Shown here in pieces: positions 1,135 through 23,289 of a DNA stretch of 64,000 nt. The DNA is from Minisyncoccota bacterium (GTDB taxonomy: Bacteria; Patescibacteriota; Minisyncoccia; Phycocordibacterales; GWA1-40-21): assembly GCA_041664585.1 (NCBI GenBank), contig JBAYKL010000001.1, positions 123,384 to 187,383 on the forward strand. Reading direction: 5' to 3'. A program made the translations under genes and the position numbers. The notes beneath the pieces were generated by a model, which saw only the letters and a program-made list of their open reading frames with translations, was not told the origin of the DNA and did not search any database. Every line of letters starts with the position of its first letter. Positions within the stretch are counted from its first letter, which is position 1.

Positions 1135-2964
1135 TTATTCCAAAACTGCTTTTATACGTCTAACCCCAGCACTTGAAGCTTCTTCTTTAGAAATTTTGAA
1201 GTGTCCGAGTTCAAATGTATTTGATACATGAGGTCCACCACAGAATTCTGTACTGAAATCCCCTATTTTATAAACCTTCACGACATCTCCATATTTAGAT
1301 AAATCAAAAGAAAGAGTTGTAACAATTTTCTTTGCTTCTTCTTTTGGCAATTCAAGCATTTCTACAGGAAGCTTTTCTTGTATTTTTTGATTTACTAAAT
1401 CTTCAACGTTTTTTAATTGGTCTGCAGTGAGTTTCTCTGTCCAATTGAAATCAAAGCGCATTCTTTCTGCTGTAATATTGCTTCCTTTCTGTACAATTTC
1501 TCCACCAAGGACTTTTCTAAGTGCCGCGAGTAATAGGTGGGTGGCTGTATGATATTTTGTCTCCACTTCTCCTGTACCAGCTAAACCTCCTTTGAATTTT
1601 TGTTCTGAGCCAGCCTTTGATTTTTGGTGGTGAATTACAACCTCATCAGAAAATTCTTTCATATCAATAAACAACCCTTTTTCTTTTCCTAATTCCATTT
1701 GTATCTCTATAGGCAACCCTTTTGATTGGTATAAATCGAAAGCAACTTTTCCAGAGACTTTTCCAGAGACTAATTTATCCTCTTTTGTAGCTTCTTCAAA
1801 TTCTTTTAAACCTTGTGCTAAGGTCTTCCTAAACTTATCATCCTCAGTCTTAATCACTTCTAAAATTTCATTTCCTTTTTCATTAAGTATTGGATACGCG
1901 TAAGAGAGTTCATTTATAACAACTTTTGCAAAAGATAATATTTCTTCTTTATTTATATCGAGCTGATCTATAAATCTGATAGCTCTTCTTAGGATTCTTC
2001 TGAGCACATATCCGGCTTCAGTATTTGATGGAACGACACCATCAGAAATAATCATAACAGCTGAACGAATATGGTCTGCGACGATCCTTTCGGCTCTCTC
2101 ATCTCTCTTTTGTGCTTTAGATTTTATTTCTCCAAGAATTTTTTCAAATAAATCTGTATCAAATACCGTACTCTTTCCTTGCATAACGACAGTGGTTCTC
2201 TCAAGACCCATTCCAGTATCCACATTTGGCTTTGAGAGTTTCTCGTATTTACCTTCCGAAGTTTTATTAAACTCCATAAAAACATTGTTCCAAATTTCTA
2301 TGATTCTTCCGCTTTTTACCAAATCAGAAAATTTACCGGCAACAGGACCATCTTCTGGACGAGTATCATAAAACATTTCAGTGTCTCCACCGCAAGGACC
2401 CACCTGACCAGCTATCCAAAAATTATCTTCCTTTCCTAAAGGAATAATTCTTACACCGTCTTTTATAATTTCATCTTCTTCCGCGACTTCTACATCTATA
2501 TTATGTTTCTTAAAATTCTCCTTCCAAATTTGTATGGCGTCTTCGTCTCTTGGAATATCATCCTCACCCTTAAACACAGTTACATAAAGTCTGTTTGATA
2601 GAAGACCAAGTCCTTCTTCTTTACTAGTGATAAATTCTAAGCTCCATTCAATAGCTTCCTTTTTAAAATAATCCCCGAGAGACCAATTACCCATCATTTC
2701 GAAAAATGTAAGGTGTCTGTTATCACCAACCTCATCTATGTCTATAGTTCTTACACATTTTTGTACATCGACAAGTCTAATACCTCCAGGGTGTTTTTCA
2801 CCGAGTAAATAGGGTATGAGAGGCTGCATACCAGCTGTAGTAAACAGAGACCCCTTATCAGGAATAACATAATCTGTGGGTATTAAAGAAGCAGAAGGAA
2901 TTATTTTGTGTCCCCTTTTCTCAAAAAACTTTAAATACCTCTCACGAATATCTTTTGATTGCAT
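1135..2964 (-). CDS. alaS: Alanine--tRNA ligase, short form lacking the C-terminal DHHA1/C-Ala domain.
   Basis: 609 aa. Has the class II catalytic core and the editing-domain motifs HTATH and CGGPH. It ends just after the editing domain. Confidence 0.9.
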   Translation of the reverse strand: MQSKDIRERYLKFFEKRGHKIIPSASLIPTDYVIPDKGSLFTTAGMQPLIPYLLGEKHPGGIRLVDVQKCVRTIDIDEVGDNRHLTFFEMMGNWSLGDYFKKEAIEWSLEFITSKEEGLGLLSNRLYVTVFKGEDDIPRDEDAIQIWKENFKKHNIDVEVAEEDEIIKDGVRIIPLGKEDNFWIAGQVGPCGGDTEMFYDTRPEDGPVAGKFSDLVKSGRIIEIWNNVFMEFNKTSEGKYEKLSKPNVDTGMGLERTTVVMQGKSTVFDTDLFEKILGEIKSKAQKRDERAERIVADHIRSAVMIISDGVVPSNTEAGYVLRRILRRAIRFIDQLDINKEEILSFAKVVINELSYAYPILNEKGNEILEVIKTEDDKFRKTLAQGLKEFEEATKEDKLVSGKVSGKVAFDLYQSKGLPIEIQMELGKEKGLFIDMKEFSDEVVIHHQKSKAGSEQKFKGGLAGTGEVETKYHTATHLLLAALRKVLGGEIVQKGSNITAERMRFDFNWTEKLTADQLKNVEDLVNQKIQEKLPVEMLELPKEEAKKIVTTLSFDLSKYGDVVKVYKIGDFSTEFCGGPHVSNTFELGHFKISKEEASSAGVRRIKAVLE

Positions 2965-3017
2965 AAGAGAAATATAACATAATATTTGATCTAAAAAAAG
3001 ATGTGCACAAACTTATA

Positions 3018-3046
3018 TTGACAGGTTAGATAATATATCCTATTAT
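3018..3046 (+). promoter_or_regulatory. Sigma70-like promoter: TTGACA, 17-nt spacer, TATTAT.
   Basis: Consensus -35 and -10 hexamers with 17-nt spacing lie about 45 nt upstream of a strong RBS (AAGGGAGG) and a small ORF. Confidence 0.45.
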
Positions 3047-3090
3047 ATTGTCTGAACTTAGTTCCAAATTTTCAACCAAGGGAGGCTTAG

Positions 3091-3234
3091 ATGTGCAAGT
3101 CGTGTTTAAAAAAGTTTCTTATAGCATGCTTAGTAATAAGCGTACTAAGTGTTCTGTGCATTTACCAAATCATAGAATTTGGGAAGATTATTAAGGAAAC
3201 CTGCAAGGAGGCACCGAGTGAGAAAAAAATATAG
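3091..3234 (+). CDS. Small Cys-containing membrane peptide (47 aa), hypothetical.
   Basis: AAGGGAGG RBS 7 nt upstream of the ATG. Sequence MCKSCLKKFLIACLVISVLSVLCIYQ... It sits between a promoter and a terminator. Confidence 0.3.
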   Translation: MCKSCLKKFLIACLVISVLSVLCIYQIIEFGKIIKETCKEAPSEKKI

Positions 3235-20541: not shown

Positions 20542-20757
20542 TTATTTTCCACCACCCATAAGACTAGTCCAATTATCATCACGATCTCCAACGGGGACCA
20601 TTTCTATTGGCTTCTCTTGGGCTACTGTTTTCGTTTCTAATCCTTCACCATTCTTTTGTCTTTCTAAATATTCTGAAATAGCAATTTTCCCTCTTTCACA
20701 AAATTCGCATAATCCAGCATCTCCACAATATTGGCATTCCGTTCTTTCGAAATTCAT
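20542..20757 (-). CDS. Small zinc-ribbon protein (CxxC...CxxC), hypothetical.
   Basis: CQYCGDAGLCEFCERG. The stop is 2 nt from the ZIP start. Confidence 0.45.
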   Translation of the reverse strand: MNFERTECQYCGDAGLCEFCERGKIAISEYLERQKNGEGLETKTVAQEKPIEMVPVGDRDDNWTSLMGGGK

Positions 20758-20769
20758 AATTAAATAAAA

Positions 20770-21174
20770 TTAACCGTTAATAAAAATGTCATATTTTTTG
20801 TCCTCCACAGCTATATGGTTTAGCCACCACTGACCTATATATGTTTCCACTTCTAGAATCAACTCCCCCGCAGGTACTCCAGATTTTAGTTTATCTTTAA
20901 ATAAATTATATTTATTTATAAAATCCTCATGCATCTTTCTATGATTATAAAATTCGGGATAATTATTTTTAATCATATAACCTTCTTCATAAGTTAGGTG
21001 CCCATGAATATATTCGTCAAAGAAGAATATAGCATCCTCTACATCTTTTGTCTTTACTCCCTTCAATATAGCAGCGATAACTGTATTAACTTGAGAAAGA
21101 AGCTTTTTATGTTGAATATCAATTACACCCTCATGAACAGACAACTCTGGTTTCCACTCAAAATTAAATGACAT
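20770..21174 (-). CDS. Hemerythrin-like metal-binding protein.
   Basis: His/Glu spacing typical of the HHE cation-binding domain: IDIQHKK...HGHLTYEE...HRKMHEDF...LNHIAVED. Confidence 0.75.
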   Translation of the reverse strand: MSFNFEWKPELSVHEGVIDIQHKKLLSQVNTVIAAILKGVKTKDVEDAIFFFDEYIHGHLTYEEGYMIKNNYPEFYNHRKMHEDFINKYNLFKDKLKSGVPAGELILEVETYIGQWWLNHIAVEDKKYDIFING

Positions 21175-21276
21175 GGTTTTTAATAAATATTAAATTAATA
21201 ATACTCATATTATACTACTTCTAGCTAAAAAAGCATTTGATTAATATAATAAATATGCTAACATATTGACTGTATT

Positions 21277-21352
21277 GGGCCCTTAGCTCATCTGGTAGAG
21301 CACCTCATTTGCAATGAGGGGGTGGCAGGTTCGAGTCCTGTAGGGTCCACCA
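21277..21352 (+). tRNA. tRNA-Ala (anticodon TGC).
   Basis: Cloverleaf folds by hand: acceptor GGGCCCU/AGGGUCC with the G3:U70 alanine identity pair, anticodon loop TTTGCAA, T-loop GGTTCGAGTCC, encoded CCA. Confidence 0.9.
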
Positions 21353-21366
21353 TTGTATAAAAACTT

Positions 21367-21390
21367 AAACCGCTTTATGCGGTTTTTTGT
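21367..21390 (+). terminator. Intrinsic terminator after tRNA-Ala.
   Basis: AACCGC-TTTAT-GCGGTT followed by TTTTTTGTTTTT. Confidence 0.6.
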
Positions 21391-21550
21391 TTTTACAGTG
21401 GTGGGCCCTAAGTAAGCAATGAGTATTGCTTACGTCAGGACTCGAACAGCGGAACCAAATTTTTTCAGTAGAAAAAATAGGTGAGCTGGTGCCCAGACAA
21501 AATTGAGCGACGGCGAAATTTTAGTCGGGGGAGAGATTTCTGTAGTCCAC

Positions 21551-21578
21551 TTGACAAATATATCTGAGGTTCTATAAT
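21551..21578 (+). promoter_or_regulatory. Sigma70 promoter TTGACA...TATAAT with a shared upstream box TGTAGNNCAC.
   Basis: TGTAGTCCACTTGACA, spacer, TATAAT. Paralogous to 21972-22000. Confidence 0.5.
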
Positions 21579-21647
21579 TAATACAGATTTTTATAATAAT
21601 ATATGCATTCAAAACCTTAGAAAGATGTACATTAAAAGGAGTTAATC

Positions 21648-21851
21648 ATGAAATCATACCTTGTACTATATGGCATATTTTGTCGTACTAGCTTTGATAC
21701 TGGTCATAATACTTATCAGAGAACTATTACATGTGAGCCCAGTGATTTACCAACAGAAGTTGCAGAAACAAAGACATCGCTTGAAAATAGACGTCCGCCA
21801 GAAGCTGAGGCTTGGGAAATTACCGTAACTCAGATTGTTCCTTTAAGTTGA
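21648..21851 (+). CDS. Small hypothetical protein (67 aa).
   Basis: AAAGGAG RBS 6 nt upstream of the ATG, its own consensus promoter, and an 8-bp perfect-stem terminator (21869-21900). Confidence 0.35.
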   Translation: MKSYLVLYGIFCRTSFDTGHNTYQRTITCEPSDLPTEVAETKTSLENRRPPEAEAWEITVTQIVPLS

Positions 21852-21868
21852 GGACGCCAGGAACCACT

Positions 21869-21900
21869 ATGCACATTCTTTTTGGGATGTGCATTTTATT
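21869..21900 (+). terminator. Intrinsic terminator.
   Basis: ATGCACAT...ATGTGCAT stem followed by a T-run. Confidence 0.5.
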
Positions 21901-21971
21901 TCCCTAAAATATCCCTCAAAATATTTTAACTCCCTTACTATTTGGTTCGTAAATAAAATGTTGTAGCTCAC

Positions 21972-22000
21972 TTGACAGATAACACTCTATATGCTATACT
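21972..22000 (+). promoter_or_regulatory. Sigma70 promoter TTGACA, 17-nt spacer, TATACT, with the TGTAGNNCAC upstream box.
   Basis: TGTAGCTCACTTGACA, spacer, TATACT. Confidence 0.5.
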
Positions 22001-22081
22001 CTGTAGAGATTTATAAAGTGGGTAAATTACCCAAAACCGTGGTGAGAGCCACAATGTTCATCAAAAGAAAGGGAAACGAAA

Positions 22082-22258
22082 ATGGCAATAAAGATATTTG
22101 CTGAATGTATAGATAGCGAAGAAGAAATTGAAGTCCTTAATAATAAAGTAAATGCTTTTATTCAGGACAAACCGCAAGCCGAAATTCAATGGCTTCAAAG
22201 CTCCGCTGGATCAAGCCATGAAAAAACAACCGTCCTTACATCAATCATCAGATACTAA
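22082..22258 (+). CDS. Cse60-like small protein (58 aa).
   Basis: MAIKIFAECIDSEEEIEVLNNKVNAFIQDKPQAEIQWLQS...TSIIRY follows the Cse60 pattern (I..F.E..E..LE..VN.F....I.I.Y......Y). Below the ORF-track cutoff. Confidence 0.4.
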   Translation: MAIKIFAECIDSEEEIEVLNNKVNAFIQDKPQAEIQWLQSSAGSSHEKTTVLTSIIRY

Positions 22259-22290
22259 TAAGCGATAAAAACGCTTTGAAAGTATCCAGA

Positions 22291-22317
22291 CCGCCCTGCA
22301 ACTTGTAGGGCGGTTTT
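22291..22317. terminator. Bidirectional intrinsic terminator.
   Basis: CCGCCCT-loop-AGGGCGG followed by a T-run. It abuts the ddl stop on the other strand. Confidence 0.55.
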
Positions 22318-22320
22318 ATA

Positions 22321-23289
22321 TTATCTCCCCTTCCTCGCCTCAGTAATCACATGATCTAAAAATTGTGAGAATGAATACCCTATCACCTTAAACGATTTTG
22401 GCAAAAGAGATTCTTTTGTAAGCCCTGGTAATGTATTTACTTCTAAAACATAAACACCTCTTTTAGGATGAACAATAAAATCAGAACGTGAGTAATGTTT
22501 AAGCCCAAGTGCTTTATGCACATTAATTGCCATTTTCTGTATTTCTTCTTTTTCTTTTTGACTAAAAGCTCCTGGGCAAATTTCTTCGGAAATTCCACTG
22601 TATTTTGAATTGAAATCAAAAAATTCAGCCTCTTTTGGTTTACGAATTTCTATGGGCAATAAAGGGTATACATCTAATCCACGAAGATTATCTACAACAC
22701 CACAAGTAGCCTCCTTGCCCTTTATAAATTCTTCTATAATTACAGTATCCGAATGTCTAAGAGCTTCTATAATTCCTTTCTCCATATTAGAAATATTATC
22801 CGCAATACTTACACCTAAAGAAGAACCACTGTTGTTTGGTTTTATAACAACTGGTATTGGGAAAGTCTTAAAAAGTTTTTTAGAAAATTCTAATATATCT
22901 TCTCCAGATTTTATAACTGTATGAATTGGAGACTTAATTCCATTCATTTTAAATACTTCTTTAGAAAGAATTTTATTCATACCAATAGCAGAAGAGAGTG
23001 CCCCAGAACCAGTAAATGGAATCTTGAAATGTTCTAAAAGTTGTTGAACCTTACCATCTTCACCATATGCTCCGTGCATAGCGTTGAAGACAACGTGAGC
23101 GTCGGCGATAACTTTTTCTGGTTTTACAGCTACACCATCAATATGCCAAACACCTTTTTTATCTATATAAACGTCTATAGGAATATATTTTTCTGGAAGA
23201 TTTTCTATTACAGATTTACCAGTCTTTAATGAGACATCGTGTTCACCACTTGGCCCTCCACGCAAAATAGCAACTTTAATTCTTCGCAT
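22321..23289 (-). CDS. ddl: D-alanine--D-alanine ligase.
   Basis: ATP-grasp fold with HGxxGEDG and the C-terminal EVNTLPG motifs. Confidence 0.9.
   Translation of the reverse strand: MRRIKVAILRGGPSGEHDVSLKTGKSVIENLPEKYIPIDVYIDKKGVWHIDGVAVKPEKVIADAHVVFNAMHGAYGEDGKVQQLLEHFKIPFTGSGALSSAIGMNKILSKEVFKMNGIKSPIHTVIKSGEDILEFSKKLFKTFPIPVVIKPNNSGSSLGVSIADNISNMEKGIIEALRHSDTVIIEEFIKGKEATCGVVDNLRGLDVYPLLPIEIRKPKEAEFFDFNSKYSGISEEICPGAFSQKEKEEIQKMAINVHKALGLKHYSRSDFIVHPKRGVYVLEVNTLPGLTKESLLPKSFKVIGYSFSQFLDHVITEARKGR

Follow-up and report, generated by a model that had tools for sequence, protein, structure and literature searches.

A putative structured RNA trailing tRNA-Ala, and two small genes beside it, in the hemerythrin-ddl interval of a Patescibacteria genome

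The tyrT operon of Escherichia coli carries 178-bp repeats encoding RtT RNA (RF00391), a trailer co-transcribed with the tRNA and arranged in tandem, with units that end in a copy of the tRNA 3′-terminal ~19 nt. The enzymes that process tRNA also release RtT RNA, to which no clear role has been assigned. This is the closest known analogue of the locus described here, which lies in a 64-kb stretch of DNA (the window) from a Candidatus Paceibacterota genome of the Candidate Phyla Radiation (CPR), between a hemerythrin gene and ddl. There, tRNA-Ala(TGC) is followed by a ~150-nt element that, like RtT, belongs to a family of tRNA-linked trailers with tRNA-end repeats and tandem arrays. The two have no match in sequence or structure, and rtT occupies one operon, whereas the Patescibacteria family follows tRNAs of at least 18 amino-acid specificities and adds an inverted copy of the tRNA end, forming an acceptor/T-stem mimic, and a conserved two-hairpin core. 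An acceptor/T-stem mimic within a longer transcript, which could direct cleavage by RNase P and RNase Z, is shared with the mascRNA of MALAT1 and with mitochondrial tRNA punctuation. In contrast with mascRNA-type modules, the mimic formed by the element copies the adjacent tRNA exactly, lacks both T-loop and anticodon arm and is closed around a core of ~90 nt, and its processing is predicted. A third comparison is with tRNA-targeted islands, which the locus resembles in having a variable slot beside the tRNA, displaced tRNA 3′ fragments in two relatives (loci L005 and L007) and tRNA-end repeats in direct orientation; it differs in that no integrase lies nearby, the window repeat belongs to the structured RNA, and the cargo is located beyond the element rather than between tRNA and repeat. 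We consider it probable that the interval is a three-layer tRNA flank composed of the tRNA, a structured RNA and two small-gene units.

Positions 21391-21540, taken as spacer in a preliminary description of the interval, proved instead to be its most conserved and most unusual part. Nucleotide similarity over 21389-21545 extends to distant Paceibacteria whose Ddl proteins are 46-58% identical, a divergence at which similarity of non-coding DNA requires an explanation. Consensus folding of five distant copies with RNAalifold gave 44 pairs, 26 of them with compensatory changes. A covariance model (CM) derived from these copies identified 14 copies in ddl loci, in which 92% of the cells are paired, 42 of the 44 pairs present double changes and covariation is 0.74, compared with 0.07-0.13 in slid controls. 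All 14 copies are on the tRNA strand, and G-U pairs outnumber A-C combinations (28 versus 7, five of the seven A-C occurring in the truncated L005 copy); the + strand is thus the structured strand.

A motif scan of metagenome contigs, which selects type-A cores, returned at least 120 stretches, and the figures that follow refer to 80 loci among the matches listed. The CM, for which calibrated E-values are rough, located at least 102 copies in these loci, 99 of them distinct. Across the 99, 95.1% of the cells are paired, with 1065 compensatory cells and a covariation of 0.62 (0.07-0.09 in slid controls); because the CM alignments follow the model itself, the paired percentages are inflated, an effect mitigated by the slid controls and by the independent RNAalifold run. 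No Rfam 15 family (E up to 5), rtT RF00391 included, matches the element, window positions 21100-22400 or the L018 and L035 copies; beyond the tRNA itself nothing reached the gathering score, the sub-threshold listings being scattered and weak. A literature search found no described tRNA-trailing RNA in CPR bacteria, nor anything relevant on rtT. Judged by its sequence, the element belongs to a widespread, multi-copy structured RNA family outside Rfam that is apparently undescribed.

The association of the family with tRNA genes is extensive. A same-strand tRNA lies upstream of 52 of the 82 listed motif instances, with 29 anticodons represented, and ends 49-93 nt (170-179 nt in two cases) before the AGCGGA core motif. 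Conversely, 58 of the 104 tRNAs in the listed loci are directly followed by a copy; ten copies come after another copy, and L102 contains five. The 5′ arm of the element is the reverse complement of the last ~20 nt of its own tRNA, interrupted by a conserved hairpin (GCAAACTGCTTTGC-like), and the 3′ end directly repeats the T-stem 3′ strand, the acceptor 3′ strand and the discriminator, with perfect copies in L018, L035, L050 and many metagenome instances. Matching is specific to the neighbouring tRNA: the inverted arm agrees with its own tRNA at 18.7 of 23 positions and with other tRNAs at 11.5, and the direct copy at 12.0 of 16 positions versus 5.4. In L014, where the element follows tRNA-Thr, the arms are Thr-matched. 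The RNA thus appears to close on itself as an acceptor-stem/T-stem mimic of its own tRNA, built around a two-hairpin core.

Variants of this architecture were also observed. A shorter, type-B core (CGGAGC-hairpin-GAGCyrGGGTCGCG-hairpin-CGTGACC) follows tRNAs in L008, L016, L032, L035 (5438-5593), L050 and L115, sometimes in tandem with type A and, in L115, between the terminator and the type-A arm; model R1 misses some type-B copies, such as that of L016. Tandem arrays with a period of ~130-180 nt occur in L091 (9452-9844), L102, L109 and L093. Past the direct tRNA-end copy of L109 the trailer and 5′ arm are repeated exactly, which is what unequal recombination between tRNA-end repeats would give. 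In the metagenome locus L151, a 33-nt duplicate of the 3′ part of tRNA-Ala, from the variable region onward, lies ~90 nt past the tRNA and is followed by a terminator and the element.

The window copy contains the nine helices and the AGCGGA...GAGCTGGTGCCCAGA...GGGAGA core of the family, lies on the tRNA strand directly 3′ of the tRNA, and has a 5′ arm complementary to tRNA positions 21329-21352. In relation to the model, 43 of its 44 pairs are intact (42 Watson-Crick and one G-U), and its single-sequence fold has an energy of -52.8 kcal/mol (z = -4.4). Inverted repeat I5 (21329-21340 versus 21436-21447) is 100% complementary, and the hairpin that follows the tRNA lies at the centre of a long palindrome that the 3′ half of the tRNA forms with the first part of the element. 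A palindromic layout is also present in L018, L009, L011 and L056, with differing sequences. ARAGORN detected no tmRNA, and matches to tmRNA_permuted are weak (16-23 bits, against a gathering score of 47) and originate from the palindrome. No conserved tag open reading frame (ORF) was found, the internal hairpins of the element varying freely. Three other identities were rejected. A tRNA-like or tmRNA gene on the minus strand, terminating in ...GGGCCCACCA and sharing the tRNA-Ala terminator, is contradicted by the strand of the CM hits, by the excess of G-U over A-C and by the lack of a T-stem or tag ORF. The complementarity runs into the genomic trailer and not into CCA, unlike a retroviral-type primer-binding site, and a group I intron inside or beside the tRNA (PMC13011429) is incompatible with the small size of the element, the absence of an Intron_gpI hit and the intact tRNA. 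The features of the interval are listed in Table 1.

Table 1. Coordinates of the features in and around the hemerythrin-ddl interval, in window positions (RBS, ribosome-binding site).
Feature	Position	Strand	Remarks
Hemerythrin gene	20770-21174	-	Left neighbour of the interval
tRNA-Ala(TGC)	21277-21352	+	CCA encoded; ARAGORN; Rfam RF00005, 63.9 bits
Terminator-like hairpin AAACCGC-TTTAT-GCGGTTT and T-run	21367-21395 (hairpin 21367-21385)		Scored on both strands
Structured RNA element, type A, intact	21400-21552	+	Boundaries from CM R1; 163.9 bits, not independent, the window copy being a training sequence of R1
Complement of tRNA acceptor 3′ strand	21403-21412	+	Part of the element
Conserved hairpin H1	21413-21432	+	Part of the element
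Complement of T-stem 3′ strand and T-loop	21436-21447	+	Part of the element
Two-branch core AGCGGA-hairpin-GAGCTGGTGCCCAGA-hairpin-AGTCGGGGGAGAGA	21448-21535	+	Part of the element
Probable decayed direct copy of tRNA 3′ end	21540-21550	+	Part of the element
Predicted promoter P1	21541-21578	+	Box TGTAGTCCAC 21541-21550; -35 TTGACA 21551-21556; 16-nt spacer; -10 TATAAT 21573-21578; 12/12
ORF1, 67 aa	21648-21851	+	RBS AAGGAG 21636-21641 (strong), 6 nt before ATG
Terminator-like hairpin and T-run, end of unit 1	21869-21902 (hairpin 21869-21894)	+
Predicted promoter P2	21962-22000	+	Box TGTAGCTCAC 21962-21971; -35 TTGACA 21972-21977; 17-nt spacer; TG extension; -10 TATACT 21995-22000; 11/12
Unit-2 leader	22020-22081	+	Hairpin GGGTAAATTACCC 22020-22032; hairpin GTGGTGAGAGCCAC 22039-22052; TGTTCAT..AAAAG; RBS AGGGA 22070-22074
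ORF2, 58 aa	22082-22258	+	RBS AGGGA 22070-22074 (moderate), 7 nt before ATG
Strong predicted hairpin terminator, 13-bp stem	22288-22320 (hairpin 22288-22316)		Between ORF2 and ddl; scan score on + only
ddl	22321-23289	-	Right neighbour, convergent with ORF2

The tRNA with its terminator, and two small ORFs as separate units, each with a promoter and a closing hairpin, had been proposed in the preliminary description, and all of these are present at the positions given there or close to them. The strong RBS attributed to both genes is found before ORF1, while that of ORF2 is moderate only. Both units display the signature of a sigma-70-type promoter (hexamers 16-18 nt apart) and a GC-rich hairpin with a T-run, and would be classified as such by sequence. 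The region is rich in terminator-like sites (five in 2 kb, 1.1 being expected from shuffles), and tRNA-Ala(TGC) is the sole tRNA of the window. Genes within ~3 kb encode, leftward, FtsX, FtsJ/S4, ZIP, a 71-aa ORF and hemerythrin and, rightward, Ddl, UvrC and a 135-aa ORF; none of the called genes over this distance on either side is an integrase or recombinase, and ORF1 and ORF2 lack recombinase features. The 71-aa ORF (20542-20757, - strand), located between the hemerythrin and ZIP transporter genes, has a zinc-ribbon-like CxxC...CxxC arrangement (CQYCGDAGLCEFC), no Pfam family and a coding score (7.6) like that of its neighbours.

Both small ORFs were called by the JGI/NCBI annotators. Coding scores were obtained per 180 nt with a three-periodic model trained on 48 window genes, and that of ORF2 is 5.8 (p≈0.0006 versus simulated ORFs; the hemerythrin gene scores 8.8). 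ORF2 was seemingly an orphan in a word-indexed search. An exhaustive phmmer search revealed six relatives (E 5e-6 to 9e-4), and a profile search 48 proteins of ~60 aa, all unannotated and from Patescibacteria where named. They share the motif M.VKIFS..L..VN.FL..HP.A.I.WLQSS..TQLTAIITY (alignment A5), of which ORF2 retains Trp-37, Gln-39, Ser-41, Thr-50, Leu-52, Thr-53 and Ile-55, placing it within the WLQSS/TQLTAIITY family, and a hidden Markov model (HMM) built from A5 matches the ORF2 frame at 8e-24 and nothing else in the window. By these sequence comparisons ORF2 is a genuine member of a Patescibacteria-wide family of ~60-aa proteins. Its relatives are encoded in chromosomal neighbourhoods that have nothing in common, behind TTGACA-N17 promoters of their own and leaders of a similar kind; those in L083 and L084 are preceded by gttcat..aaagggaRaa. 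Four consecutive genes (65, 82, 83 and 67 aa) matching the family HMM were observed in L085 (2185-3204) and L086, a tandem paralogue expansion in a Falkowbacteria-like genome that adjoins PemK toxin and RNase H genes.

ORF2 had been put forward as a Cse60-like protein, with Pfam profile PF10957 as the means of checking it; Cse60 is a sporulation protein, with sigma-E-dependent expression in Bacillus. The predicted fold is in partial agreement. An alignment-based AlphaFold model (predicted local distance difference test, pLDDT, 93.6) comprises β-strand 3-10, α-helix 13-27 and β-strands 34-44 and 47-57, a β-α-β-β order that, like the length of ~60 aa, resembles that of Cse60; it replaced a single-sequence model that was all-helical (pLDDT 68) and was dropped. 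Foldseek comparison with BFVD placed Cse60-annotated phage proteins at ranks 2, 9, 19 and 21 (probability 0.95-0.99; E 3e-3 to 3e-2, no match of any kind reaching E ≤1e-3; template modelling score 0.48-0.64), while comparison with the PDB returned only a generic two-layer α/β fold. PF10957 gave no match to ORF2 at E up to 10. It is the only Pfam family matched by at least three members of the ORF2 family (3/48), with a best E of 0.043, below threshold, so the profile-HMM check fails for ORF2 and its relatives alike. In addition, tblastn of the ORF2 family against phage genomes found nothing significant. ORF2 is therefore best described as a protein with a predicted Cse60-like fold, possibly a remote relative of Cse60, that is no demonstrable member of that family.

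ORF1 is less secure, its coding signal being weak. It scores 0.9 (p≈0.01), where real genes reach 17.4±6.5 and intergenic ORFs generated by simulation -15.7±8.0. No ORF1 family was found in Pfam, NCBIfam, PHROGs or PADLOC, tblastn and phmmer gave no match in ~200 loci, and a word-indexed search of 5.8 billion clusters returned only ORF1 itself, the exhaustive search having covered ORF2 only. Since the word-indexed search also missed the real relatives of ORF2, the orphan status of ORF1 is not proven. It is rather unlikely, although a serious alternative, that unit 1 encodes no protein, ORF1 being a chance frame, and instead yields a non-coding RNA of ~310 nt or represents a promoter-leader duplicate in decay. 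This is consistent with the lack of homologues, with a score below ~98.7% of real-gene segments, with the absence of ORF1 from the closest relative, and with a unit-1 leader that resembles the unit-2/L097 leader minus its hairpins. ORF1, however, exceeds 99% of simulated intergenic ORFs, the other frames score -21 and -62, and its Shine-Dalgarno sequence is the best of the interval and ideally spaced. A variant of the same alternative assigns unit 1 to a hydrophobic peptide encoded out of frame inside ORF1 (21670-21828, +), with a transmembrane-like helix (MAYFVVLALILVIILIRELL...) and a Lys/Arg-rich tail, the shape of a type I toxin; this frame has no RBS, the score of -21 and no PHROG or PADLOC match. 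We prefer to regard ORF1 as an orphan specific to this strain, the translation of which is probable but not certain. Divergence of ORF1 from a common ancestor with ORF2, as a paralogue, was rejected, there being no BLASTP or family-HMM signal between the two unrelated proteins. Phage origin was discarded too (the element is absent from viral contigs, the ORF2 family has no phage match and ORF1 no PHROG), as was membership of a defence system, for which PADLOC returned nothing meaningful.

The family could also be regarded as a DNA-level feature, either a non-autonomous integrative element resembling a miniature inverted-repeat transposable element or a recombination site, with terminal repeats derived from the target tRNA and hairpins formed in single-stranded DNA. 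Multiple copies, tandem arrays, and presence or absence at identical tRNA-Ala genes would fit such an origin; the element is entirely lacking from other genomes in which the tRNA-Ala 3′ end is identical. The direct tRNA-end repeat resembles a target duplication or att core, and arms of such exact complementarity suggest templated copying rather than selection. Against this stand core helices with dense compensatory change that tolerate G-U on one strand only, a direct copy that stops at the discriminator base, which is an RNA-processing boundary, and the many copies that follow a tRNA with no terminator between and hence form part of the precursor. Furthermore, no transposase or integrase is associated with the element and viral contigs contain no copies. 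We regard a purely DNA-level explanation as distinctly unlikely; the RNA and DNA views are compatible with each other, since both groups of features would be expected of a mobile RNA gene.

The DNA beyond the element forms a variable slot, in agreement with the earlier proposal of a fast-changing tRNA flank. In L005, the closest relative among species-representative genomes (Ddl 93% identical), the sequence is collinear with the window over 21344-~21500 and again from the ddl stop codon, while ~21501-22316, comprising the 3′ third of the element and units 1 and 2, is wholly replaced. The L005 slot (1207-3177) contains an operon of three genes, one LemA-like (213 aa) and two TPM-domain-like (276 aa, ending in a Gly-rich tail, and 152 aa), identities assigned by reading the sequences; its tRNA-Ala is a 3′ fragment only (AATCCTACGAGGTCCACCA), and a protein of 440 aa that looks secreted takes the place of hemerythrin. 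At the ddl stop of the same locus, in the position of unit 2, a small promoter-to-terminator unit was noticed (975-1130, -; GGCGGGTCGTTATTGAATAGCTGAACAGGCGTTCAATGAACGTGGAGCAAATCCAAACCCGCC and terminator), which has a closing stem and lacks both an ORF and any Rfam match (E up to 1). In L007 (5462-6560), a 323-aa Fic/DOC gene (HPFVDGNKR motif; Fic/DOC-RhuM) starts right at the tRNA-Ala 3′ end and is followed by a displaced tRNA 3′ fragment (GAATCCGACTGGGTCCAC), the T-arm of which is unlike that of the resident tRNA, and then by a type-B element, the layout of a tRNA-targeted island with no integrase in view. The linkage of tRNA-Ala(TGC) and ddl recurs in ~45 Paceibacteria loci, usually with a relative orientation opposite to that of the window. 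Most ddl loci of the series L006-L070 have the tRNA on the ddl strand, 40-150 nt downstream of that gene, whereas the two converge in the window and about ten further genomes, at a distance of 1-4 kb and with unrelated genes between them. This difference points to inversion or rearrangement at tRNA-Ala.

Units 1 and 2 might accordingly have been acquired separately, as cassettes that entered by site-specific or homologous recombination at repeats of the tRNA 3′ end, each bringing or regenerating a core-TTGACA junction, much as tandem islands accumulate at tRNA att sites. Each unit does open with a tRNA-3′-like repeat, the family forms tandem arrays through such repeats, the insertions and displaced fragments of L007 and L005 are of island type and lie at the same tRNA, and the slot is exchanged as a whole in L005. 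The L005 breakpoint, however, is inside the element and not at the box that precedes each promoter; the P2 box is closer to the P1 box (17/20) than to the tRNA end; no integrase is called within ~3 kb; and elsewhere the homologues of ORF2 are ordinary chromosomal genes without tRNA linkage. We give this scenario little credence.

The promoters carry the feature that the preliminary description had emphasised, a box TGTAG(T/C)(C/T)CAC directly upstream of each -35 hexamer. The box (TGTAGNNCAC) is present before both hexamers and TGTAGNNCACTTGACA occurs exactly twice in the window; the 20-mers composed of box, -35 and four further bases are 17/20 identical (direct repeat D2). Both promoters are near consensus, although the 17-nt spacing attributed to them applies to P2, that of P1 being one nucleotide shorter. 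The window contains six sites of at least 11/12, no more than shuffles (mean ~3.5), and two of the six are P1 and P2, 421 nt apart. Local alignment of the two upstream regions is equalled in 22 of 2000 dinucleotide shuffles, the shared -35 hexamer contributing. As an independent motif the box does not stand. The element ends in the window as ...GAGAGATTTCTGTAG--TCCAC, with TTGACA immediately after, and L018 has at the homologous position ...GAGAGATTCCTGTAGGGTCCAC (TTCCTGTAGGGTCCAC), which reproduces the tRNA-Ala 3′ end perfectly; positional homology extends to L035 and L050. The P1 box, as judged from the alignment of the window with L018, L009, L011 and L056 and from the CM boundaries, is thus probably the decayed terminal repeat of the element, that is, its 3′ closing strand, the tRNA-Ala 3′ end CTGTAGGGTCCAC with GG deleted, and the P2 box is inferred to be a local repeat of the P1 junction. 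A promoter adjoins the element in only 3 of 44 instances, so that it was rejected as a general 3′-flank feature; with the box itself missing from 202 related loci, the junction is a local feature, neither family- nor regulon-wide. An integron attC site or CRP-like operator was also rejected, as sequence and spacing are unfit and the palindrome of an ORF2 homologue (L083) has another geometry. Orthology of P1 with the L005 LemA promoter (CCAC(C)TTGAC, ATATATCTG shared) is suggestive, but the register differs and it was not relied upon. Finally, we give very little credence to the box being a transcription-factor or UP-like site that unites P1 and P2 in a small regulon of acquired micro-genes, one a Cse60 homologue: its two exact matches in 64 kb each abut a near-consensus -35, TGTAG-N6-TGACA is a loose inverted repeat, the L083 homologue has a perfect palindrome (TTGTCAAC-TCTC-GTTGACAA) over its -35 and Cse60-annotated proteins are among the best fold matches of ORF2, yet no third copy exists in the window at up to two mismatches or in the 202 loci, the P1 copy coincides with the 3′ end of a conserved RNA, the L083 palindrome differs in spacing and sequence, and PF10957 is not significant for any family member.

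Downstream of P2, the leader hairpin AACCGTGGTGAnAnCCAC (22035-22052), followed by TGTTCwT and an A-run, is common to unit 2 and L097 (3297-3314, -). In L097 a tRNA-Ala element is succeeded by ...TCACC, TTGACA-17-TATAAT and the leader, which there drive a leucine-rich-repeat surface protein; since a P2-type module drives an unrelated gene, the module predates its cargo. The shared leader may represent a conserved 5′-untranslated module. In unit 1 the leader flanks (AAAACC..ATGTACATTAAAAG) are present and the hairpin is missing.

Under the three-layer reading, the element would be transcribed within the tRNA precursor, in the window by read-through of the intervening hairpin, and would be released by RNase P and RNase Z, which process tRNA ends, acting on its tRNA-like closing helices; the tRNA-like nature of these helices and the exact end of the direct copy at the discriminator base, a processing boundary, suggest this route. 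P1 and P2 would fire to give ~310-nt monocistronic mRNAs from sigma-70-type promoters to intrinsic terminators. At P1 the 3′ closing strand of the element abuts the -35 hexamer, a junction apparently repeated at P2. Historically, the element probably came first, then the promoter-leader module and then the gene, with unit 1 inserted or duplicated between them later. The arms may be kept identical to the neighbouring tRNA by quasi-palindrome correction, by another templated process or by selection for alternative pairing.

Several observations weigh against this reading. P1, P2 and the terminators are predictions from consensus match. P1/P2 similarity past the -10 is not significant by itself (241 of 2000 shuffles), and that of the tRNA 3′ end to the P1 box is marginal within the window alone (110 of 2000), so that the identity of the P1 box rests on positional homology with relatives; local duplication of the P2 box is deduced from the 17/20 repeat. 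The 3′ end of the window element (CTGTAG--TCCAC, compared with the tRNA) has a 2-nt deletion, making the closing strand short and the acceptor-like stem imperfect. A strong terminator-like hairpin and U-run separate the tRNA from the window element and leave no space for a separate promoter, so that this copy may be poorly transcribed; many family members have no such intervening hairpin. As for the small genes, the coding score of ORF1 lies in the lowest ~1-2% of real-gene segments.

A bolder reading, which we hold to be slightly less likely than not, sees in the element a hitherto undescribed and very abundant RNA class of Patescibacteria, whose members arise as 3′ trailers of many different tRNAs and rebuild the acceptor and T stems of each around a core that is conserved. 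The tRNA-complementary segment could then pair either with the tRNA, spoiling it, or with the downstream copy, freeing it, and the element could be a cis-acting switch or quality control of tRNA maturation. Alternatively, RNase P and RNase Z could release a tRNA-shaped small RNA with a function of its own. The exact matching of arms and tRNA would imply templated copying, through quasi-palindrome correction or a new mobility mechanism. The two micro-genes are of modest interest, a CPR-wide ~60-aa family with a predicted Cse60-like fold and a candidate young gene. For annotators, “upstream promoter boxes” or “tRNA att repeats” in such genomes may be ends of this element. If expressed, the family would bear on how tRNA precursors are processed and controlled in the genome-reduced Patescibacteria, and on how repeats stay identical to a neighbouring gene.

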